From NCBI GenBank assembly GCA_963762255.1, contig CAVXKA010000001.1:480001-544000 (forward strand): 64,000 bases of DNA, in the 5' to 3' direction. The notes under the pieces are model-generated. The model was given only the letters and a program-made list of their open reading frames with translations, did not search any database and had not been told where the DNA came from. The DNA comes from Candidatus Eiseniibacteriota bacterium. GTDB lineage: Bacteria; Eisenbacteria; RBG-16-71-46; JABDJR01. The position numbers were made by a program, and so were the translations under genes. Below, piece by piece: positions 52,763 to 64,000 of the stretch. Each line of letters opens with the position of its first letter. The stretch's first letter is position 1.

Positions 52763-53467
52763 TCAACGATACATCTGCTTGACTCGACTCCAGCTCGTGG
52801 CCTCGACCGGCACGGGCGGCCGACAGGCAGGCACGCGTATGCCCCCGCCGTCGGTGAGGAACCTGACCAGCGGCTTCGTGCCGTTCTTGCCCACGGCCCC
52901 CGAGAGATCGCGCCCCCCCTTCACGAACCAGAGCCCCTCGGTGGGTGGGGCGACGCTTTTGAAGCTGACGATCAGCACGGGATCGTCTGGATCGGTCGGG
53001 TAGGACACGCCATCACCGTCGGGCACCAGCCCCCCCTCGCAGAACCCGACCTTCATGCCGTTCGTGTGGCAGTCCTGACCGAGGCCGGGCTCGTTGAACC
53101 CATACGAGTCCTCCGCCACCTCCAGGGAGCAGACCGACTCCGATTCCCCACCGAGCGTGATGCCGCTGTCACCGTCAAGGATGATGCTGCTCGCGGCCTC
53201 GCCTTCGCATTCGAAACGGATGGAGATATGGCTGGGGTCGCGATAGGTGATCCGTCCCTGATCCACGCGGTACAGACGGTAGGTGTAGGTGTACAGCCCA
53301 TGAATGTCCGGTCCCTGCACGTCCGAGATGACGCCGAAGTCGAACCCGACATCCTGCTGCTCCGCCACGCCGTCCCAGCATGAGTCGGCGAACGCGGGAG
53401 AGTAGATGATGAGAAGACCCGCCGCAGCGAGTGCGGCCAGGATAATGCGTCTTAGCACGATGACCAT
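52763..53467 (-). CDS. Secreted protein with C-terminal TSWSRVKQMY tail
   Basis: Signal peptide AFA-D; ends PVPVEATSWSRVKQMYR. Confidence 0.72.
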   Translation of the reverse strand: MVIVLRRIILAALAAAGLLIIYSPAFADSCWDGVAEQQDVGFDFGVISDVQGPDIHGLYTYTYRLYRVDQGRITYRDPSHISIRFECEGEAASSIILDGDSGITLGGESESVCSLEVAEDSYGFNEPGLGQDCHTNGMKVGFCEGGLVPDGDGVSYPTDPDDPVLIVSFKSVAPPTEGLWFVKGGRDLSGAVGKNGTKPLVRFLTDGGGIRVPACRPPVPVEATSWSRVKQMYR

Positions 53468-53848
53468 CCCTTCGTTAAATGCCGGCGGCGCCTTGCCAAG
53501 GGACACCGCCCCCCCAATTGCGTCACGACAAAAAAAACAGGGACCCCTCCTCGTCAAATGGACGAGGAAGCGCCCCATCGGTATGGATCAAGCAATGACA
53601 GCTGGGCCGGCGCCCGCCGGCCTTCGCTTCGTGTTCCCGGACATAATGGTACCATGAAAATCACGGGCGGATCGCAACATTTATTTTCTCAACGAAGGGA
53701 ATTTGCGCGCCCGAAGGCAGCCGATTCGTGCGGAGTCCATGTTCGTTGCATTTCACAAATAGTGGGTGAAATTCCCCGTTGGACGCGCCGGGATGCGCCG
53801 TTGCCGCATCCGAAGGGGTTCTAGCGAAAGAAGACGCGCGTCAGACCG

Positions 53849-54943
53849 CTATTTTTGCGGGAAATGTCGGAATCCGAGGGGGGGCAGCGACGCCCACCCC
53901 CCTGCGTGCGGGACAAAAATCCCCGCTCGACCCTCGGCGACTTCTCCGATCTCGGTAATCGGGATTCCAGCCAGCCGCCCCTTGTCGCGGGCCCGCTTCG
54001 CGGCGCGGGGAGGCAGCGTGAAGAGAAGTTCGTAATCCTCGCCGCCGCGCAGGCACGCCACGACCGCGTGCTCGCCCAGGGCGTGGGCCAGGGCCTCGAA
54101 CCGGGGCCGGATCGGCAGGCGGTCGGGGTCGATGTTGAACCGCGCTCCCGACTCGGCGAGGTGGCCGAGATCGACGGAGAGGCCGTCCGAGAGGTCGATG
54201 AGGCTGGTGGGCCGGAGCGCGCGCAGTGCGAGCGCGAGTCGAACGCGCGGCTCGGGGAGAAGGAAGCGCCGAAGCGCCGCCGCGGCTTCGACGTCGCTCG
54301 TGCGCAGCTCGCGCCGCCATGCGGGTTCTCCCGCGGGCGGAGGAAACCAGGGATCGCGGGCGGTCCGCTTGCGGCCGCTCGGGGCGGCCGGGAGCACTGC
54401 CGAGAGGAGGCGAAGCCCAAGATAGGCCAGACCCGGGCGCCCGGAGACGAACACCCGGTCGCCGGGACGCGCCCCTGTCCGAAGCAGCGGTTTCCCGCTC
54501 GGGAAGCCGCCGAGCAGAAAAACCGTGACGGAGATGCGTTCGCCGCGCGCCAGGTTCCCGCCGATCACCTGCACGCCTTCGCGGCGCGCCAGCCGGCGCA
54601 TGCCGCGATACATCCGCTCTACGGCCGAGACCGACGTCGTCGGGGGGAGGATGAGCGAGACCAGCGCGTGGGTCGGCCGGCCACCCATGGCCGCGGCGTC
54701 GGAGAGGTTGGCGGCCAGCGCCTTGTGCCCGACTTCCTCGGGGAGAAACCACGCTCGATGAAAATGCGTCCCCTCGACGAGGACATCCGTGGTGAGCAGT
54801 GCGTGAGTGCCACGCAGAGGAACGACCGCAGCGTCGTCGCCGATCCCGACGCTGTCGCGCGGGGGCGCACCGAGAACCCGGGCGATCCGACGGATAAGGC
54901 CGGTCTCACCCAGGTCAGCGACGGTGAGCTGAGGGTCGGTCAG
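53849..54943 (-). CDS. thiL: Thiamine-monophosphate kinase (probable CTG start)
   Basis: The frame continues upstream of the ORF-track start as LGETGLI..GIGDDAA..TTDVLVEGTHF..NLSDAAAMGG; IDLSDGL, GGEDYEL, GFRHF. Confidence 0.92.
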   Translation of the reverse strand: MTDPQLTVADLGETGLIRRIARVLGAPPRDSVGIGDDAAVVPLRGTHALLTTDVLVEGTHFHRAWFLPEEVGHKALAANLSDAAAMGGRPTHALVSLILPPTTSVSAVERMYRGMRRLARREGVQVIGGNLARGERISVTVFLLGGFPSGKPLLRTGARPGDRVFVSGRPGLAYLGLRLLSAVLPAAPSGRKRTARDPWFPPPAGEPAWRRELRTSDVEAAAALRRFLLPEPRVRLALALRALRPTSLIDLSDGLSVDLGHLAESGARFNIDPDRLPIRPRFEALAHALGEHAVVACLRGGEDYELLFTLPPRAAKRARDKGRLAGIPITEIGEVAEGRAGIFVPHAGGWASLPPLGFRHFPQK

Positions 54944-55140
54944 CGGACCAACCTGACGACGTAGCCCGCGCCCTTCTTGCTGAGCTGGACCTTCTCCTCG
55001 CGGGCCAGCCAGCCGACCCCCATCTGGACCATGGAAGGAGTCTGCTTGAGCTCCTCCTTGATGTCGTTCAGAGAGGCCTCGCCAAGCCGCTCCAGAAGAT
55101 GGTAGATATCACCGGCGACGAAACCGACCTGGTTATTCAT
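54940..55140 (-). CDS. Small winged-helix protein (DUF2582-like)
   Basis: VGFVAGDIY..GVGWLAREEK; GAGGAGG RBS. Confidence 0.8.
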   Translation of the reverse strand: MNNQVGFVAGDIYHLLERLGEASLNDIKEELKQTPSMVQMGVGWLAREEKVQLSKKGAGYVVRLVR

Positions 55141-55330: not shown

Positions 55331-56140
55331 GTGAAGCGCCTAATCGTCACCCGCCCCGGTCGCAAGATCCGTCTCAAAGACATCCGGACCGACGACGAAC
55401 TCGGTCTCGGCAGCAAGGAAGAGGCACACGAGCTCCTGAAGGCGGACCTGGAACGCCTGGGCGAACTCCAGCATCTGCTTTACGCCGACGATCGCTTCGC
55501 CCTGATGATCGTTCTCCAGGCCATGGACACCGGGGGGAAGGACGGGACGATCCGAAACGTCATGTCCGGGTTCGACCCCGTGGGCTGTGTCGTGACGTCG
55601 TTCAAGGTTCCCACGGAGGACGAACTGGACCACGATTTTCTTTGGCGCATCCACAGGGCGGTGCCGCCTCGGGGCGTGATCGGCGTGCTCAACCGATCGC
55701 ACTACGAAGACGTGCTCGTGGTGCGCGTGCACAAGCTCGTATCCAGGGAGACTTGGAAGCTTCGCTACCGCCAGATCAATGACTTCGAGCGGATGCTCAC
55801 CGAGAACGGCGTTCCGATCCTCAAGTTCTTCCTGCATATCAGCAAGGAGGAACAGGCGCTCCGGCTCAAGGCGCGTCTAGAGGACAAGACCAAGAACTGG
55901 AAATTTTCGCCGGCGGATATCGAGGAGCGCAAGCTCTGGAAGGATTATCAGGCGGCGTTCGAGGACGCCATCAACGCGTGCACCACGAAGTGGGCGCCGT
56001 GGCACATCGTTCCCGCCGACAAGAAATGGGTGCGAGACTGCGTCGTCGCCCGCGCCCTGCTCGAAAAGCTGGAGTCGCTCGATCTCCGGTACCCGAAACC
56101 GCTCTCCAAGGCGGCACTCTCGAAGATTGTGATCGGCTAG
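55331..56140 (+). CDS. ppk2: Polyphosphate kinase 2 family protein (class III-like)
   Basis: QAMDTGGKDG Walker A, HDFLWR, NRSHYEDVL, NWKFS, APWHIVPADKKW. Confidence 0.93.
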   Translation: MKRLIVTRPGRKIRLKDIRTDDELGLGSKEEAHELLKADLERLGELQHLLYADDRFALMIVLQAMDTGGKDGTIRNVMSGFDPVGCVVTSFKVPTEDELDHDFLWRIHRAVPPRGVIGVLNRSHYEDVLVVRVHKLVSRETWKLRYRQINDFERMLTENGVPILKFFLHISKEEQALRLKARLEDKTKNWKFSPADIEERKLWKDYQAAFEDAINACTTKWAPWHIVPADKKWVRDCVVARALLEKLESLDLRYPKPLSKAALSKIVIG

Positions 56141-56240
56141 ATTCCCGGATCAGCAGGCTTGTAGTAACGGGCGAGGAGAAGTAGTATGAAGGCCTGCGGA
56201 GTTCATTAGACTTAATTCGTCAATTATCGGGCTCCGTCGC

Positions 56241-57689
56241 GTGGAGGATTGTGTCGCAATTGTACAAAGCACTCGCTCGCCCGCCGACGACCCCAGAAGA
56301 GACCCGACCATGTCGCGCTCGATCAATTTGATTCGTTTTTGCATAGGGCCCCATGTTTCCCTCAGGGTCTCCCATCTTCTGGCTCTCCTGGCCTGCGTAA
56401 TCGCCTGTTTCTCCTCCAACGCCACCGGGGCCGACCCCCGGTTCGGTGATTCCACCTGGGTGGCCCCCGTCATGCCGATCGTGGGGGATCCCGGAAGCGC
56501 GGGCCCACGGGTGGCCGAGCCGGATCGCGAGCGCGCGTGGGAAACCGCGCTGCGTACGCCGTTCCGCGTCGTCTTCCTTCCGCTGCGCTTTCTGGCGCGT
56601 GGCATGGAGGCCGGCGTGGGTCATTTCGGAGGGAAGTTCCTCGACCCGAAGCCGAAGGAGGCGCCACGGCCGGGGCTGGCCCTCGGACCGCACGTGGACC
56701 TCAGCGGCGCGAGCGACGGACTCGGCGGGATCGGAGCGGGACCGGCCCTCACTTGGACCGGGTTCCCGACCGCGGATTCGCGGATGGTGGCGTCAGGCAC
56801 GATGTCCATCAACGATCGCCGCCGCGCACGTCTTCGTGGGGTGGTCGGAGATCGGCGCCTGGTCGGCCTTCTCCTGCGGGTCGACTACGAGTACCGGCCG
56901 GACCGAAGCTACTACGGCATCGGGAACGACGCGCGAGAGTCGGACCGTGCCTACTACCGCCTCGAGACCACGAGCGCAGAGGCAGGGTTGTTCTACGGGG
57001 CCTCGCCGCTGCGCCGCGTGCGGCTTCTGGGCGGCTACTCGGGGATTAGTCCGGGCCGCGGATACCACGGAAGCCCCCTGCTCGACGACGTGTTCACGCC
57101 GGGGAGCGTGCCCTACGACCGCGTAGCCACTCGCGTTCTCACGTACGGAATCGCCGGAGACCTGGCCACCCTCGATGACTTGGCTGTCCCGTCGCTCGGT
57201 CTTCACGGTCGTGCCGAGCTGAGGCAAGCGGCGGGCATGCGCGGAATCGACCCTGATTACACGCAGTGGCTGGTCGAGGGCCGGGCCTACGTGCCGGTGT
57301 TCGCCCACCGCCGCGTGCTCGCCCTGCGCGCCCTGTACACCGGCGTGGATCCGACCGGCAGTACGTCGGTCCTCCCCTTCTATCGTCTCCCGGTGACCGA
57401 AAACCCGTTCCGCCTCGTCGGCTATGCCTCGCAGCGCTTCCGGGACCGTCAGCTCATCCTCTGTCGCATCGAGTACCGCTGGATCATCGGGCGCAATCTG
57501 AGCGCGGTGGCCCTGTACGAACTCAGCGAGGTGGCTTTCGAAAGGCGGGCGTTCACCCTCCGGAGCATGCACTCGGCGTGGGGGGGCGGCCTCCGTCTGG
57601 GAATGAACGACGCGACGGCTGCTCGCCTCGAGTTGGGGAAGAGCGTCGAGGGGCTCCATGCCGTCCTGCGGTTCGCGAGCGACTTCTGA
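56241..57689 (+). CDS. Omp85 (BamA/TamA-like) beta-barrel without evident POTRA domains (start may be ATG 56310)
   Basis: Hydrophobic signal, LPFY..LVGY..RFRD loop-6-like motif, EYRW, GGGLR, terminal Phe. Confidence 0.75.
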   Translation: MEDCVAIVQSTRSPADDPRRDPTMSRSINLIRFCIGPHVSLRVSHLLALLACVIACFSSNATGADPRFGDSTWVAPVMPIVGDPGSAGPRVAEPDRERAWETALRTPFRVVFLPLRFLARGMEAGVGHFGGKFLDPKPKEAPRPGLALGPHVDLSGASDGLGGIGAGPALTWTGFPTADSRMVASGTMSINDRRRARLRGVVGDRRLVGLLLRVDYEYRPDRSYYGIGNDARESDRAYYRLETTSAEAGLFYGASPLRRVRLLGGYSGISPGRGYHGSPLLDDVFTPGSVPYDRVATRVLTYGIAGDLATLDDLAVPSLGLHGRAELRQAAGMRGIDPDYTQWLVEGRAYVPVFAHRRVLALRALYTGVDPTGSTSVLPFYRLPVTENPFRLVGYASQRFRDRQLILCRIEYRWIIGRNLSAVALYELSEVAFERRAFTLRSMHSAWGGGLRLGMNDATAARLELGKSVEGLHAVLRFASDF

Positions 57690-59353
57690 TGCGAGTTCTC
57701 TTCGTCACCCCCGTGCTCATCTTCTTCTCAGTTATTGCGACCCCCGGGGCCTCTCCGTCCCACGCCGCGGACGACTCGCCGAAGCCGGGAATCAACGACA
57801 GCACGTGGGTGGATCACGATGGCCTTCCCATTGCGCAGCCTCCCGATTGGGGGCCGACTCTCTGGGGTAGCCTGTTCCGCGAGGGAATCGTCGAGCCTCT
57901 ATCCCACATGTTCGACGTGCCCGACAAGCTGCTGAGCACCACGGAGGTTTTCGGCGCGGATCCGGAGCGCGAGGCGGTGAACGTGAACGCGTTCGACGAA
58001 GCGCCCAACTCGACTTGGTTCACGAACCGCAACCACATGCGAGCCGTGCCGGTGACCGAGTTCGAAGAGGCCCACGGCGCGCTGCGACCCACGAAACCAT
58101 GGACCATCAAGAAACCGAAGCAAGGCGGAAACACCGTGGGCTTCCAGATCAAGGATGCCGACGGTAAGAAGTGGCTCGTCAAGCTGGATCCGGCCGGTTA
58201 CCCGCAGCTCAGCTCGGGCGCGGACCTGATCACGAGTAGCCTGCTCCAGGCCGCGGGCTACAACCTCCCGCACAATCCGATCGTGAGTTTCCGGCGAAGC
58301 GATCTCAAGATCGATGAGGATCTGCTGCAAGGTAAGGAGGGGGCGCCGTTCACGGAAGCCGACCTCGATTCGCTGCTCGCATCGGGCGCGCTCCTGTCGG
58401 ACGGCAGCTACTCGGGTTTCGCCAGCCTGTTCCTCTCCGGCCACGTGCTGGGCTCTCCGAGCACACGCCGGCTTCGCCCGGGCGATACGAACGACTGGTA
58501 CTCGCACATGAACCGCCGCGAGCTTCGCGGTCTGTACGTGTTGAGTTCCTGGCTCAACAGTTGGGACACCAAGGATCTCCAGTTCCTCGACACGTTTGTC
58601 GAGACGCGAGACAGCCTGGGACACGTCGACCATTACATACTCGACGTAGGCGCGTCTCTCGGCGTGGGAGCCGAGGGGCCGAAGAAGCTGGCGAGCGGGT
58701 TCGAGCACACGATCGACTTCGAGTGGACCGCATGGCGGATCCTGAGCCTGGGCTTTGTCGTGGAACCCTGGCGCCGGGCCCGCCAAGAAACCGGCATTCC
58801 CTCGGTGGGGAACTTCGAGTCGGCGGTCTACAAACCGGCCAAGTTCAAGGCCCTGGTACAACACCCGGCGTTCCGTGAGATGACGGACCGGGACGGCTAC
58901 TGGGGAGCCAAGATCGTGGCGTCCTTTTCCAATGCCCAGATCGCAGCGGCGGTGGACGCGGTCCACTACGAGGACCCGCGTTCCGCCCCCTACCTGGTGC
59001 GATGCCTGATCGAGCGGCGCGACAAGACCGCCCGCTACTGGTTCGACCGGGTCGCCCCCTTGGACTTCTTCTCGGTGCGAGACGGGGTGCTGCGCTTCCA
59101 CGACTTGGCGGTGGACGTCGGCCTGGCGCAGCCTCGGGCCTATGAAGTGAAAGCCCGATCACCGGAAGGCGGTGTTTCGATGGGCGAGAAGGCCCGCCTG
59201 AGCGACACGGCACTACTTCTGATTGACCTCGGTAACATCGCGTCCCGCGTTTCGCTCGAGTTCTCCATCGCGGGGAACGGAGCGAAGCCGACGCGCGTGG
59301 AGCTGAGACGAGGGGGCTCTGGATGGGTGATAACTCAAGTACGGCACGGATGA
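57689..59353 (+). CDS. Secreted protein with atypical (HipA/PI3K-like) kinase-type motifs
   Basis: TGATG overlap; signal peptide SHA-A; KQGGNT..WLVKLD, WLNSWDTK, YILDVG. Confidence 0.6.
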   Translation: MRVLFVTPVLIFFSVIATPGASPSHAADDSPKPGINDSTWVDHDGLPIAQPPDWGPTLWGSLFREGIVEPLSHMFDVPDKLLSTTEVFGADPEREAVNVNAFDEAPNSTWFTNRNHMRAVPVTEFEEAHGALRPTKPWTIKKPKQGGNTVGFQIKDADGKKWLVKLDPAGYPQLSSGADLITSSLLQAAGYNLPHNPIVSFRRSDLKIDEDLLQGKEGAPFTEADLDSLLASGALLSDGSYSGFASLFLSGHVLGSPSTRRLRPGDTNDWYSHMNRRELRGLYVLSSWLNSWDTKDLQFLDTFVETRDSLGHVDHYILDVGASLGVGAEGPKKLASGFEHTIDFEWTAWRILSLGFVVEPWRRARQETGIPSVGNFESAVYKPAKFKALVQHPAFREMTDRDGYWGAKIVASFSNAQIAAAVDAVHYEDPRSAPYLVRCLIERRDKTARYWFDRVAPLDFFSVRDGVLRFHDLAVDVGLAQPRAYEVKARSPEGGVSMGEKARLSDTALLLIDLGNIASRVSLEFSIAGNGAKPTRVELRRGGSGWVITQVRHG

Positions 59354-60994
59354 CGACACGCACGCCGGACTCTCATACCGGTCGAGGCGGAGGCAGGCGC
59401 TTTGCCTTCGCAGCCGCGATCCTTGTCGTGCTCCTCGGCTGCGGCCACATCGGGCGTCTGCAGTACGTAGCCCAGCCCGTTTCTCCGGCGTCGACGGACA
59501 GCACGGAACTGAAGGCGTTCGTGGGGCCCATGCCTTGGCATCCCGCTGTTCGGCGACACGGCGATCGGCTTGGTGCCGGGCACCGCGGACTCTTCGATTC
59601 GCTTCCTGGGACGGCTGCGCAGCGGATACGCGGCGGATACGCTGAACATCATCCTGTGCGGCGACAACCGCCCGGGCTACCGCCTTGGGCGTCTCGCGCC
59701 GCAACTCCAGACCATCCGGCAGGGGGTCTCGCTGAATCCTCTCAAGGTCCTGCGCGCTCTGGTCACCATCCCCTACGCGATCGTGAAGGGACTGTATCCC
59801 GACTTCGCGCTCATCCGCGAGATTCCACCCATGATCAAGCGCATGCCTAAGTGGGGGCGCGAGCACGAAGTCATGGAAGCGATGCTGGTGAAGATCGATT
59901 CGCTGGAGACCCACGGGCAAGACGTCGCGGCGGTGATCAATGTCGGAGACGTCGTGAAAGACGGACGGTACCCCTCTCACTGGGAGCGATTCCTACGACT
60001 CACCCACCCACTCACGTCGCGGGTGCCTTACTTCCCCGTCCCCGGGAACCACGAGCGCACCGACACCGTGGAAGGGATCGAGAACTGGTGGACCGCGACG
60101 GGCCTGCCGGTCGGCGGTGATCGTCTCTATTACTGCTTCGATTCCGCCGATGGGTGGGTTCGATTCATCGCTCTGGATTCGAACCCGATCGTGAACTCAG
60201 GGAGCCACTGGACGCGTGAGGTCCAGATCAAGTACGCCGAGGAGCAATTCACCTGGTTGGTGGAGCGGGTCAAGGAGCACCGTGGGCCGGTGCTGGCCCT
60301 GCTGCATCACCCGCCGTTTTCGGCCGGCACGCACCGCCTCGAGTGGCAGAGAGATGAGTTGCTGCTCGAACAGCGCGAGCGCATGGTGCGGGCGTTGCAC
60401 GAGTCCGGAATCGCAGCCGTCGTGAGCGGGCACGATCACTCCTACCAGCGCGCCCTGCTCACCTGGCCCGATGCCGTGCTCATCGTCCTCGTCTCGGGCG
60501 GCGCTGGATCGCCTCTGCACGACATCCCGCTGCCCGCCGAGAGCGCGCGGTTGTTCAGCGAGTACAAGGTGGCCGGCTCGGTCGTGAAGCCCGAGAACGT
60601 CTTCACCAGCCAGGTGTTCAACTTCACCCACTTGCGTCTTTGGTTCGGCGGCGGCGATTTCTATACGTATGCGGTCGACCAGAACTCGAAGACGACGCTG
60701 ATCGACAAGGTGGAGATCGATCTCAACCGGTACGGCACGCCGGAGATCGATCAGCACAAGATGGTCATCCCGCCGTCCGGAGGGCCGTCAGAACCCTCGG
60801 AGGACAAGGCAAGCACGCCGGACTCGACCACGGCCACGGCCGATTCGACCACGGCGAGCGAGCGGCTCCTCTCGAAGCCGCCGCCGAGCGGGGAGTCCGA
60901 GCAACAGGGAATCAGCCCTGACAAGCCTGACTCCGTCTCGGTCAAGCCGCAGACCCCTCAGACGCCGGTGCCGGGCACGGGGCGACCCAGATAA
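59350..60994 (+). CDS. Metallophosphoesterase lipoprotein (+1 frameshift near 59535)
   Basis: ATGA overlap, LLGC lipobox; GDNR, GDVV, GNHE, HHP, GHDH calcineurin-like motifs; P/S/T-rich tail. Confidence 0.85.
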
Positions 60995-61031
60995 TGCAGC
61001 ACGTGCTTTTGCGCACGAGAACGATGGAGGA

Positions 61032-62441
61032 ATGGACATGACCACCACCGCGTCCGACCGAGGCAAAGACGCCGGGCCGCTGAGCAAGGACTCCAAGAGT
61101 CTGCTCGACCGCTTTCTGGGGATCTTCGCGGACGTGCGCGGCGGGGAGGGTGTAACTGCGCTCCTCTTGATGTTGAACATTTTCCTCCTGCTCGCGAGTT
61201 ATTACCTGCTGAAGACGATTCGTGAGCCCCTCATCCTGGCCGGGTCGGGCGGGGCGGAGATAAAGAGCTATTCCGCGGGGGTGATCGCGGGTCTCCTCCT
61301 CATCCTCGTGCCGCTCTACAGCATGCTGGCCTCACGTGTGTCGCGCGTCAAACTCATCAACGGGGTGACGCTGTTCTTCATCGCCTGCCTCGTTGCGTTC
61401 TTCTTTCTCAGCTTGAGTGGGGTTTCGATCGGCGTCGCGTTCTTCATCTGGGTCGGGATCTTCAGCATGATGATCATCGCCCAGCTCTGGGCGTTTGCTA
61501 ACGACGTGTACACCGTGGAGCAGGGAAAGCGGCTGTTCGCCATCGTGGGCTTTGGAGCGTCCCTGGGGGCCATCGCGGGGTCCTTCGTGACCGGGCAACT
61601 GGTGAAGGTGTACGGCCCCTACCCCTTCATGCTCGGCGCCGCGGGGTTGCTCGGCCTGTGCATGGTGCTCACGACTGTCATCCATTTCCGAGAGAAGCGC
61701 CGGCTCGCGGGCGCACCGCCGGCCGCCGGGGGCGGAGCGGGTGCGGACGCTGCCGTCGAGGAGACCGCCAACGTCGAGGCTCCCGTGAAGGGGCGCAGCG
61801 GCTTCGCCCTCGTTCTATCGGATCGATACTTGCTGCTCATCGGGCTCTTGATGCTTCTCGTCAACCTTGTGAATACGACCGGGGAGTACATCCTGGGAAA
61901 GACGGTCGTTGATCTCTACGCGGCAACCCATAGCGCCGGCGCTGGATCTCTCGACGAGGGAAAAGTGATCGGGGAGTTCTACGGCAACTACTTCACCGTG
62001 GTCAACGTTCTCTCGGCCCTCATCCAGGCTCTTGTTGTCTCACGCGTATTGAAGTACTTCGGCGTGAAGGTGGGGCTGCTCGTTCTGCCCGTGGTGGCGC
62101 TCATCGGCTACGGCGCCATGGCGTTCATCCCGTTGCTTCCCTTCATCCGCTCGGTGAAGCTGGCGGAGAACTCGATCGACTACTCGCTGCAGAACACCTC
62201 GCGAAACGCTCTCTATCTGCCGACGAGCCGGGAGGCGAAATACAAGGCGAAGCAAGCCAATGACACCCTCTTCGTGCGCTTCGGGGATCTCTGTTCGGCG
62301 GGGCTCGTCTTCGCCGGTGTCACATGGCTGGGATTCACGACGAAGCAGTTCGCCCTCACAAACGCCGCGCTCGTCCTCGTCTGGCTCGTCCTCGCGATCG
62401 TGATCGGCCGGCGTTTCCAGAAGCTCGCGAAGACAGCCTGA
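61032..62441 (+). CDS. NTT/Npt1-family (ATP/ADP translocase-like) carrier
   Basis: YYLLKTIRE, FFIWVGIF, QLWAFAND..QGKRLF, ENSIDYSL..LYLP..KYKAK; about 12 TMs. Confidence 0.85.
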   Translation: MDMTTTASDRGKDAGPLSKDSKSLLDRFLGIFADVRGGEGVTALLLMLNIFLLLASYYLLKTIREPLILAGSGGAEIKSYSAGVIAGLLLILVPLYSMLASRVSRVKLINGVTLFFIACLVAFFFLSLSGVSIGVAFFIWVGIFSMMIIAQLWAFANDVYTVEQGKRLFAIVGFGASLGAIAGSFVTGQLVKVYGPYPFMLGAAGLLGLCMVLTTVIHFREKRRLAGAPPAAGGGAGADAAVEETANVEAPVKGRSGFALVLSDRYLLLIGLLMLLVNLVNTTGEYILGKTVVDLYAATHSAGAGSLDEGKVIGEFYGNYFTVVNVLSALIQALVVSRVLKYFGVKVGLLVLPVVALIGYGAMAFIPLLPFIRSVKLAENSIDYSLQNTSRNALYLPTSREAKYKAKQANDTLFVRFGDLCSAGLVFAGVTWLGFTTKQFALTNAALVLVWLVLAIVIGRRFQKLAKTA

Positions 62442-62449
62442 GGCTATCC

Positions 62450-64000
62450 GTGACTCCGGTGCAAGTCTTCGGCCATGTCCTCCGCCGGCTCGGACTCGAG
62501 CCCGAGGAGAATAGGCTCCTGGGCCTGATGGGCGCGCTCTGCGCAACGCTCATGTGCGCCTACACGGTCGCGAAGGTCGTGCGGGATGCGCTGTTCCTGC
62601 AGGAGTTCGGCGCGCTCTCGCTCCCCTATGCCTATGTCGCCGTCGCGCTCGTGTCGGTGGCGTTCGTGTGGTTCGAGAGCCGGCTCGCCCGACGGTTGAC
62701 GCGTGTGGGCGCGACCTGGTTCAACCAGTACACCGCGATCGGGTTCAGCGTGGCCGCCGCGTTGATCCTGCCGCATGCCCGGCACTGGACGGCTGCGGTG
62801 TTCTATCTGTGGACCGGCAGTCAGGCCATGATGCTGATTCCGCATTTCTGGCTGCTGGCGCTCCATTTCTGGGATTCCCGGCGCGCGCGCCGCATCTTCC
62901 CGCTACTCGCCGGTTTCGGGCTCATCGGCGGACTCGCCGGCGGTGCGATCGCGGCCTGGTTGGCGCCGTTGGGCCTGGTCGCGCTCACGTGGATTCTGTC
63001 GGGGCTGCTCGTGGTGGCTCATGTGCTCACGCGCATCGTGAAGCCGCGCAGCACGCGCCTCGTCGCCGCCCTGGACGCATCGCCCGGCGTCTCCAGTTGG
63101 GAGATCATTCGGCGATCCCCGTACATCAAGGTCATGGTCGCCGGCCTCGCGTTGTCGGTCATCGTCGGGACCCTGGTCGATTTCCAGTTCAAGTTCTTCG
63201 CCCAGCAGCTCTACCCGGATCCACACGCCCTGACTAGATTCCTCGGCGCTTTCTACGTCGGGCTCAACGCTTTGGCGATGCTGCTCCAATTCGGCGTCGC
63301 CGGATGGCTGTTGCAGCGCTTGGGCCTGGGGACATCCATGGGATTGCAGCCGGGAACCGTGCTGTTGTTCGCGACGCTGACGGCGGTCACCAGCGGAGGA
63401 TGGGTGGTCATCGCAATGCGATGGATTCAGGGTGTCACCGCGCAGACGCTGGGAAAGTCGGCGGCCGAGATCTACTTCGCGGCGGTCCGCCCGAGCGAGC
63501 GCCGGCGCATCAAGCTCGCGATCGACACGCTGGTCGAGCGCTGGTCGGATGCGGCGGCCGGCATCGCGCTGATCGTCGTCCTGCGCGTCCTCCATGTTCC
63601 GATTATGTTCATCGGCGTCGGGACGGCCGTCCTGGCGGCAGCGTGGATCGTCGTGGTGTGGCGCCTGCACATGCGCTACGGCTCGGCCTTCGAGCAGGCC
63701 CTGAGCAGCCGCTGGATCGAGCCTGACGTGGCGCCCGAAGCGATGCGGATCCCCTCGGCGCGCAAGGCGCTGCTGCTGGCGTTGAACGACGACGATGAGC
63801 ACCGAATCGTGTTCGCGCTCAAGCTGAGCGAGAGCGCTAGCGATCCGGCCGTTGCACGCGCGGTGCGAGACTGCCTCCGGCACGCCTCACCCGGAGTGCG
63901 CACGGCGGCAATGAGAGCGATGGAGGAGACCCGCGCGCCCGACCCGGACGGCATGATCGAGGGTTTCCTGCGCGATCCCGACGAAGGCGTGCGCCGCGCC
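62450..64000 (+). CDS. NTT-like carrier fused to HEAT repeats (3'-truncated by window; absent from the ORF track)
   Basis: Hand translation from GTG 62450 stays open: AKVVRDALFL, HFWLLA..ARRIFP, LVDFQFK, ERRRIKLAIDT, then HEAT-like LRHASPGVRTAAMRAM and LRDPDEGVRRA. Confidence 0.8.
   Translation, partial: MTPVQVFGHVLRRLGLEPEENRLLGLMGALCATLMCAYTVAKVVRDALFLQEFGALSLPYAYVAVALVSVAFVWFESRLARRLTRVGATWFNQYTAIGFSVAAALILPHARHWTAAVFYLWTGSQAMMLIPHFWLLALHFWDSRRARRIFPLLAGFGLIGGLAGGAIAAWLAPLGLVALTWILSGLLVVAHVLTRIVKPRSTRLVAALDASPGVSSWEIIRRSPYIKVMVAGLALSVIVGTLVDFQFKFFAQQLYPDPHALTRFLGAFYVGLNALAMLLQFGVAGWLLQRLGLGTSMGLQPGTVLLFATLTAVTSGGWVVIAMRWIQGVTAQTLGKSAAEIYFAAVRPSERRRIKLAIDTLVERWSDAAAGIALIVVLRVLHVPIMFIGVGTAVLAAAWIVVVWRLHMRYGSAFEQALSSRWIEPDVAPEAMRIPSARKALLLALNDDDEHRIVFALKLSESASDPAVARAVRDCLRHASPGVRTAAMRAMEETRAPDPDGMIEGFLRDPDEGVRRA

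Follow-up and report, generated by a model that had tools for sequence, protein, structure and literature searches.

NTT carriers are usually taken as marks of energy parasitism, and the periplasm is usually described as ATP-free. What NTTs do in free-living bacteria has been an open question since at least 2017 (PMC5381601), and the sections of that paper on one clade, NTT-HEAT, describe an NTT domain with a C-terminal HEAT part and a cNBD gene just downstream, an arrangement left uncharacterized there (Major et al. 2017, PMC5381601). We analyzed a window of 64,000 nucleotides (nt) from the genome of a free-living Candidatus Eiseniibacteriota bacterium (GenBank assembly GCA_963762255.1, contig CAVXKA010000001.1, positions 480,001–544,000; G000:C1:480001-544000 in our numbering), at the end of which a row of genes on one strand encodes an Omp85-like barrel, an exported kinase-like protein, a metallophosphoesterase, and two NTT carriers. 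The second carrier, together with the gene directly downstream for a cyclic nucleotide (cNMP)-binding protein, has the arrangement of the NTT-HEAT/cNBD clade. The core of the module is conserved: a gene for a barrel without POTRA domains is followed by one for an exported protein with a kinase fold. Frequent accessory genes encode two paralogous NTT carriers (one fused to HEAT and then followed by the cNMP-binding gene) and an exported metallophosphoesterase lipoprotein. Our literature search, made mostly at the level of titles and abstracts, returned no published description of the module; the name "NTT-HEAT" is used in three papers. We tentatively read the locus as one instance of an envelope gene module, widespread and undescribed, in which ATP export feeds the exported kinase, a reading to which we give somewhat less than an even chance.

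The phyla listed for the NTT-HEAT clade (Acidobacteria, Gemmatimonadetes, Latescibacteria, Marinimicrobia, and Poribacteria) overlap those of the module; where it treats this clade, the published account assigns no function and names no partners of the Omp85 barrel, exported kinase, or phosphoesterase kind (PMC5381601). By its predicted fold, the barrel may fit the "noNterm" class of Omp85 proteins, which likewise have a 16-strand barrel without POTRA and whose function is given as unknown in the passages on that class (Heinz and Lithgow 2014, PMC4104836; Bettin et al. 2024, PMC11358297). The likeness is one of architecture, and there are differences: the window barrel has a predicted long N-terminal helix, and the leptospiral noNterm genes, as portrayed in those passages, are flanked by genes for DUF1566 lipoproteins and not by one for a kinase-like protein (PMC11358297, PMC4104836).

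HipA/HipT and CtkA gave the best structural matches to the kinase-like protein. Those proteins, ∼300–440 amino acids (aa) long, act as toxins in the cytoplasm or, in one case, as a secreted effector. The window family, in contrast, combines a signal peptide or lipobox with an extension at the N-terminus, a beta-sandwich at the C-terminus, and an Arg-rich helix that is invariant (HEHRRELRG). Nucleotide carriers of the endoplasmic reticulum and Golgi supply ATP to the kinases of the eukaryotic secretory pathway. With Fam20C and Fam20B, the module shares a predicted kinase-fold enzyme outside the cytosol beside a putative dedicated nucleotide carrier; it differs in that the window family has no Pfam Fam20C match and the carriers belong to another family, NTT. 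The likeness to Fam20 may describe how the module works, not its descent. TpsB/FhaC and the type Vd protein PlpD have in common with the locus an Omp85 barrel gene adjacent to, or fused with, that of an exported enzyme. In two-partner secretion, however, TpsB has two POTRA domains and TpsA a two-partner secretion (TPS) domain, neither of which was found in the window pair.

The genes of the locus, in window coordinates, are:

55331..56140, + strand: PPK2-family polyphosphate kinase gene (matches to Pfam PPK2 and NCBIfam TIGR03709)
56310..57689, + strand: gene for a predicted POTRA-less Omp85-superfamily barrel (ATG start; alternative GTG at 56241; sub-threshold Pfam and NCBIfam matches, AlphaFold2 [AF2] model, Foldseek)
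57689..59353, + strand: gene for a predicted exported atypical kinase-like protein, 554 aa (AF2 fold; conserved Lys, Asp, and Asp)
59350..59538, + strand: metallophosphoesterase gene, N-terminal lipoprotein-signal part (LLGC lipobox in the frame of ATG 59350)
59539..59539, + strand: extra C breaking the phosphoesterase frame (metagenome contigs of relatives, frame analysis)
59540..60994, + strand: calcineurin-like metallophosphoesterase, catalytic part, with a low-complexity C-terminal tail (Pfam Metallophos)
61032..62441, + strand: NTT/TLC-type carrier 1, 469 aa (Pfam TLC; profile match to 9j3n)
62450..64000, continuing to window-equivalent 65170, + strand: NTT-HEAT carrier 2, 906 aa (HEAT_2; profile match to 9j3n)

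Six co-oriented genes with these junctions had been reported by the first-pass annotation, a reading of the letters alone, and they are present in the sequence as described. Read directly, the barrel stop TGA (57687–57689) overlaps the kinase ATG (57689–57691) as TGATG, and the phosphoesterase ATG at 59350 overlaps the kinase stop (59351–59353) as ATGA. Carrier 1 begins at ATG 61032 after a gap of 37 nt that contains GGAGG, carrier 2 at GTG 62450 after 8 nt, and the gap between PPK2 and barrel is 100 or 169 nt by choice of barrel start. The unit does not end at 64000: in the continuation past the window end (L002), carrier 2 runs on to 65170 and is followed by the cNMP-binding gene (L002 11164–11901; cNMP_binding, 55.5 bits), which starts 7 nt before the carrier 2 stop. 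Scans of the locus for promoters and terminators gave signal at or below the level of shuffled sequence.

Gene neighborhoods were compared in two samples, using locally built profiles on six-frame open reading frames (ORFs). The class of the window genome was sampled with 41 genomes, of which 14 had the kinase family; 13 loci were fetched. The barrel lay directly upstream of the kinase in all 12 of the loci with enough flank, and a carrier lay within 8 kb of the kinase in nine of the 13. The wider sample came from a pattern scan with one genome per species (567 relatives among 604 matched stretches), from which the best 79 loci were kept; because the query was a narrow 12-sequence alignment, these loci are biased to consensus-like members and are not a random sample. 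They came from Ignavibacteria, Zixibacteria, Calditrichota, Poribacteria, Marinimicrobia, Latescibacterota, KSB1, Cytophagia, Gemmatimonadota, Acidobacteriota, Planctomycetota, Nitrospirota, and Balneolaceae. Across over ten phyla, the barrel was directly upstream of the kinase in 62 of the 72 loci whose upstream flank was 1.5 kb or longer, and it was within 8 kb in 73 out of 79. In the 42 loci flanked by 6 kb or more on each side, genes within 8 kb of the kinase were the barrel in 40, any carrier in 17 (the carrier 1 type in 15, NTT-HEAT in 11), the phosphoesterase in 14, the cNMP gene in 11, and PPK2 in one. The full order of barrel, kinase, phosphoesterase, carrier 1, carrier 2-HEAT, and cNMP gene recurred in L027, L028, L076, and L079 (Ignavibacteria, Zixibacteria, and others), and the arrangement is far beyond chance because identical gene order recurs in other phyla. 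In loci without a carrier after the barrel-kinase pair, the next genes (28 checked) were heterogeneous, with no further conserved partner. The module is also present in a cultured bacterium, Aliifodinibius salipaludis (L081).

Regulatory genes adjoin the module as well. Of 93 loci, 33 had PAS/GAF histidine kinases and, behind the cNMP gene, a stand-alone receiver; genes of these kinds are common, and the count is weak evidence. Where FCB-group bacteria have the full operon, the receiver is a response-regulator receiver of ∼165 aa (L027 17779–18273, L028 17843–18325, L079 17732–18229, and others), and the gene preceding the barrel encodes a PAS/GAF hybrid histidine kinase of very large size.

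Presence and absence over whole genomes agreed with the neighborhood counts that these genes, which the first-pass annotation had put forward as one system, co-occur in other genomes. Using thresholds of E ≤ 1e-10 for the kinase family and E ≤ 0.001 for Pfam TLC, we classified 206 genomes of the window's phylum into 90 with both, 13 with the kinase family only, 11 with TLC only, and 92 with neither. This set includes an unpublished genome (G081) positive for both, without which the first cell is 89 and the total 205. The association has a Fisher p of 8e-31, an overstatement, given that related genomes cannot count as independent. Across families the pattern is patchy, and it was seen again in a second lineage, the class of A. 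salipaludis (121 genomes: both, nine; kinase only, two; TLC only, three; neither, 107). Eleven of the 13 kinase-only genomes belong to a single family (f16), and their sole copy is a divergent paralog (E 1e-30 to 1e-128); all four members of that family with a strong kinase match have TLC. In the comparison within this family, only the strong-match kinase type tracks carriers. TLC was also present in five of five genomes behind named loci, including two (G208 and G209) whose 21-kb loci contained none and whose carriers lie elsewhere in the genome. The linkage and co-occurrence of carriers with the barrel-kinase core is strong and not obligate. Pairwise distances of kinase and barrel were correlated in a mirror-tree comparison (r of 0.69 overall and 0.77–0.88 within subgroups); such correlations are weak evidence only.

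The kinase-like protein had no Pfam family at E ≤ 0.01 and no NCBIfam match. Its family is large: a cut-off of E ≤ 1e-3 gave 2388 cluster representatives, and one of E ≤ 1e-30 gave 556. Its thousands of members have no Pfam or NCBIfam model of their own. In an alignment of 53 sequences, a Gly-rich stretch is followed by an invariant Lys, and there are also a WLNHxDxxxxN loop and a motif resembling IDFG. Of 241 members compared, 233 conserve the Lys, 237 the loop Asp, 226 the loop Asn, and 238 the DFG Asp. The window copy keeps the Lys and both Asp residues and has Gln in place of the catalytic-loop Asn, as do 10 others that include its nearest relatives.

The first-pass annotation had called this protein kinase-like, and an AF2 model with its structural matches supports a protein-kinase-like fold for the exported protein (predicted local distance difference test score [pLDDT] of 89.4, predicted template modeling score of 0.90). 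All leading Foldseek and VIA matches were kinases, in line with a bilobal kinase fold of the window protein: CtkA had a Z of 14.7 (root-mean-square deviation of 4.2 over 235 residues), Fam20 proteins 11.0–12.9, PI4KII 11.8–12.4, and HipT/HipA 8.7–11.4 (HipT, 11.4). In the numbering of the stretch 57686–59353, which runs one higher than in the true protein (start 57689), the Fam20 alignment begins at residues 37–40, within the N-terminal extension, and residues 457–543 form a separate C-terminal beta-sandwich (Z of 6.5–6.6). A language-model atlas placed kinase families nearest, with weak scores. Sequence searches of the PDB with the protein and its profile returned chance-level cathepsin matches or nothing; Pfam HipA_2 matched weakly in three of the 53 family members (best E of 7.4e-5) and not in the window protein, and Pfam Fam20C (PF06702) matched neither the window protein nor any of 53 relatives tested. 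The window protein begins with a signal peptide, and its N-terminal extension precedes the core. A hydrophobic N-terminus was found in 125 out of 133 full-length family representatives and a lipobox-like pattern, by a crude pattern test, in 61 out of 133. About half of the family is thus lipoprotein-like, which suggests that the proteins stay on a membrane.

The barrel scored below the cut-offs of both family models (Pfam Omp85, 21 bits against 24; NCBIfam Omp85_fam, 44 bits against 200). Its AF2 model (pLDDT 84.4) contains a signal helix, a disordered linker, a helix at 76–111, and 16 strands at 124–455; the helix (36 residues) is predicted at moderate confidence only. The top Foldseek matches were the barrels of BamA and TamA (E of 3.6e-11 and weaker). 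A POTRA domain was found neither by the Pfam search nor in the AF2 model, and the protein is, as modeled, a 16-stranded barrel of the Omp85 superfamily without POTRA.

Homology of the two carriers to NTTs, also proposed in the first-pass annotation, was confirmed by profile matches to solved carriers. Carrier 1 matched Pfam TLC (PF03219) at 55.5 bits, against a cut-off of 21, and its family profile matched the solved "ADP,ATP carrier protein 1" (9j3n) with an E of 3.3e-35 over positions 4–435 of 442 and the chloroplast NTT1 (9j3j) with an E of 4.8e-26. Carrier 2 reached 16.1 bits with TLC, under the cut-off, and 68.8 bits with HEAT_2 in three stretches; its profile matched 9j3n with an E of 1.2e-27. 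The two are paralogous (hhalign probability of 100, E of 1.8e-72, 434 columns). By sequence comparison, both are full-length NTT-family (Transporter Classification 2.A.12) homologs of solved ADP/ATP carriers.

What had been annotated as a phosphoesterase lipoprotein is present in both its parts and is not a single open frame. The lipoprotein signal (LLGC) lies in the frame of ATG 59350, whereas the catalytic domain lies in the next frame, which is open only from 59513. In three orthologs (L014, L015, and L016) the lipoprotein N-terminus and the catalytic domain share one frame. We compared the junction with contigs of close relatives from three metagenome runs of three studies (X2, X3, and X4): the X3 contig has an explicit one-base deletion at 59539, and in the X2 and X4 contigs ...ATGCCTTGG is joined straight to 59540. 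The base at 59539 is missing in the contigs of the relatives, and therefore the window carries an extra C there, which divides the gene between an ORF for the signal peptide and a catalytic ORF that has no signal. The window's own sequence was in none of the sequencing runs examined (best share of words, 0.29); the extra C may have arisen in assembly, or it may be a true mutation, possibly a recent inactivation. The catalytic part passed the gathering score of Metallophos (PF00149; 50.8 bits against a cut-off of 21.5), and eight homologs at other loci likewise matched it. The closest solved relatives of an intact ortholog are the diphosphonucleotide phosphatase 3zk4 (2.2e-5) and purple acid phosphatases. 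Elsewhere, a 1251-aa protein (L085 5580–9332) carries a metallophosphoesterase domain at its N-terminus and, toward the C-terminus, a long region without a Pfam match. Its blastp cluster, from five loci, also includes one ORF assigned to the barrel family by local profiles. The protein is thus a candidate for the phosphoesterase-barrel fusions that the first-pass annotation proposed seeking.

If ATP export feeds the exported kinase, the carriers would pass ATP from the cytoplasm across the inner membrane and take up ADP from the periplasm in return, phosphate being moved as well or not. In principle, NTT exchange can run in either direction, and phosphate is reportedly a third substrate of NTT-type carriers. 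Gating from the cytoplasm would fall to the HEAT and cNMP-binding parts; the exported kinase, located at the barrel or beneath it, would use periplasmic ATP on an envelope target (a protein, a lipid or lipopolysaccharide, or a glycan); and the phosphoesterase would erase the phospho-mark or recycle the nucleotide. The general claim that free-living diderms of more than ten phyla export ATP through NTTs under HEAT/cNMP control, powering a barrel-docked kinase with a phosphoesterase as eraser, is one that we hold to be doubtful. If true, bacteria would have an equivalent of the kinases of the eukaryotic secretory pathway, and the role of NTTs outside parasites and plastids would be explained. 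The genetic link between carrier, kinase, and barrel makes the NTT question directly testable by experiment, and it is a first functional context for POTRA-less Omp85 proteins and for the kinase-like family that lacks a model.

Several observations count against export of ATP to a docked kinase. The window kinase has Gln at the catalytic-loop position where 226 out of 241 members have Asn. Both carriers score far below the NCBIfam model for NTP/NDP exchangers (TIGR00769; 50 bits vs. 387), and therefore exchanger function cannot be transferred from that model. A carrier was near the kinase in only the 17 of the 42 fully flanked loci, the phylum contains the 13 kinase-only and 11 TLC-only genomes, and distances of kinase and carrier 1 were correlated at r of just 0.22 overall and 0.66 in the window's subgroup, in a carrier (TLC1) set that mixes subgroups. 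The phosphoesterase gene is broken in the window copy. Finally, Omp85 barrels normally handle proteins, and this one may serve as an exporter rather than as a dock.

Such an exporter is the basis of one alternative, by which the barrel, in the manner of two-partner secretion, would move the kinase to the surface or outside to act on other cells or the matrix, in the way of secreted CtkA, with the carriers co-occurring for regulatory or indirect causes. The near-invariable adjacency of barrel and kinase and the covariation of their distances (r of 0.69 to 0.88) would fit, as would the top structural match to the secreted Helicobacter pylori kinase CtkA and the long N-terminal helix of the barrel, which is reminiscent of the plug helix of FhaC. 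The barrel is, however, without a predicted POTRA domain, the cargo has no match to any Pfam family and hence no TPS domain, the lipobox-like pattern of 61 out of 133 family members (crude as that test is) suggests retention on a membrane, and the strong genome-wide link to carriers is left unexplained; we consider secretion decidedly unlikely. Another alternative is scavenging, akin to the capture of external nucleotides or polyphosphate raised in the first-pass annotation, in which the phosphoesterase (elsewhere a PAP2 phosphatase) would process external nucleotides, the NTTs would import them, and the barrel-kinase pair would serve uptake or sensing. NTTs are known importers, for example in chlamydial and other symbionts, as recounted in parts of the 2017 paper (PMC5381601). 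The affinity of the phosphoesterase to diphosphonucleotide phosphatase and purple acid phosphatases points the same way, PAP2 genes adjoin the barrel-kinase pair in seven loci and also in L077, and the module here lies within a polyphosphate cluster. Yet scavenging leaves a conserved kinase fold with catalytic-type residues without a role, the phosphoesterase is present in only 14 out of 42 fully flanked loci and broken in the window, and Omp85 barrels are not known to act as solute channels. We judge this explanation unlikely.

The polyphosphate genes raise a further explanation that concerns this genome, namely that PPK2 makes NTP from polyphosphate for the carriers, or that the locus handles envelope polyphosphate together with CYTH-CHAD, PPX, and PPK1. 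PPK2 is a clear family member (Pfam PF03976, 230 bits, above the gathering score; TIGR03709, 375.9 bits vs. 247) and lies on the same strand, the 100 to 169 nt upstream noted above. After the cNMP gene comes a CYTH-CHAD gene 48 nt on (+ strand), then PPX and PPK1 (− strand) convergent with it; the stretch from the cNMP gene to PPK1 spans L002 11164–17867 (window-equivalent 65164–71867), and the module in this genome sits inside a polyphosphate gene cluster (PPK2, CYTH-CHAD, PPX, and PPK1). PPK2 also recurs beside the module, upstream of the barrel in L046 as in the window (L002) and abutting carrier 1 in L064 and L082, the latter position fitting a nucleotide theme. These are nonetheless the only four loci out of 93 with PPK2 near the module, and it was linked in none of the 13 class relatives, which bears out the doubt over its membership voiced in the first-pass annotation: PPK2 is probably a neighbor of the module and not a conserved member. 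No class relative's locus contained CHAD, PPX, or PPK1. Genomes of the same family without the module retain CHAD and PPX together (only these two are shared), so the polyphosphate cluster stands on its own. A functional unit of module and polyphosphate genes therefore has, in our estimate, a slim chance.

Two further genes of the window lie on the − strand upstream of PPK2. The ORF at 52763–53578 (−; 271 aa), between aconitase and a ThiL-like gene, is hydrophobic over a stretch near its N-terminus and matched neither Pfam nor NCBIfam. The ThiL-like gene itself (53849–54945, −), judged by eye from motifs, has no ATG, GTG, or TTG between the upstream in-frame stop (55109–55111) and ATG 54688. 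Its conserved N-terminal motifs lie upstream of 54688, and candidate CTG starts are found at 54943 and 54913.

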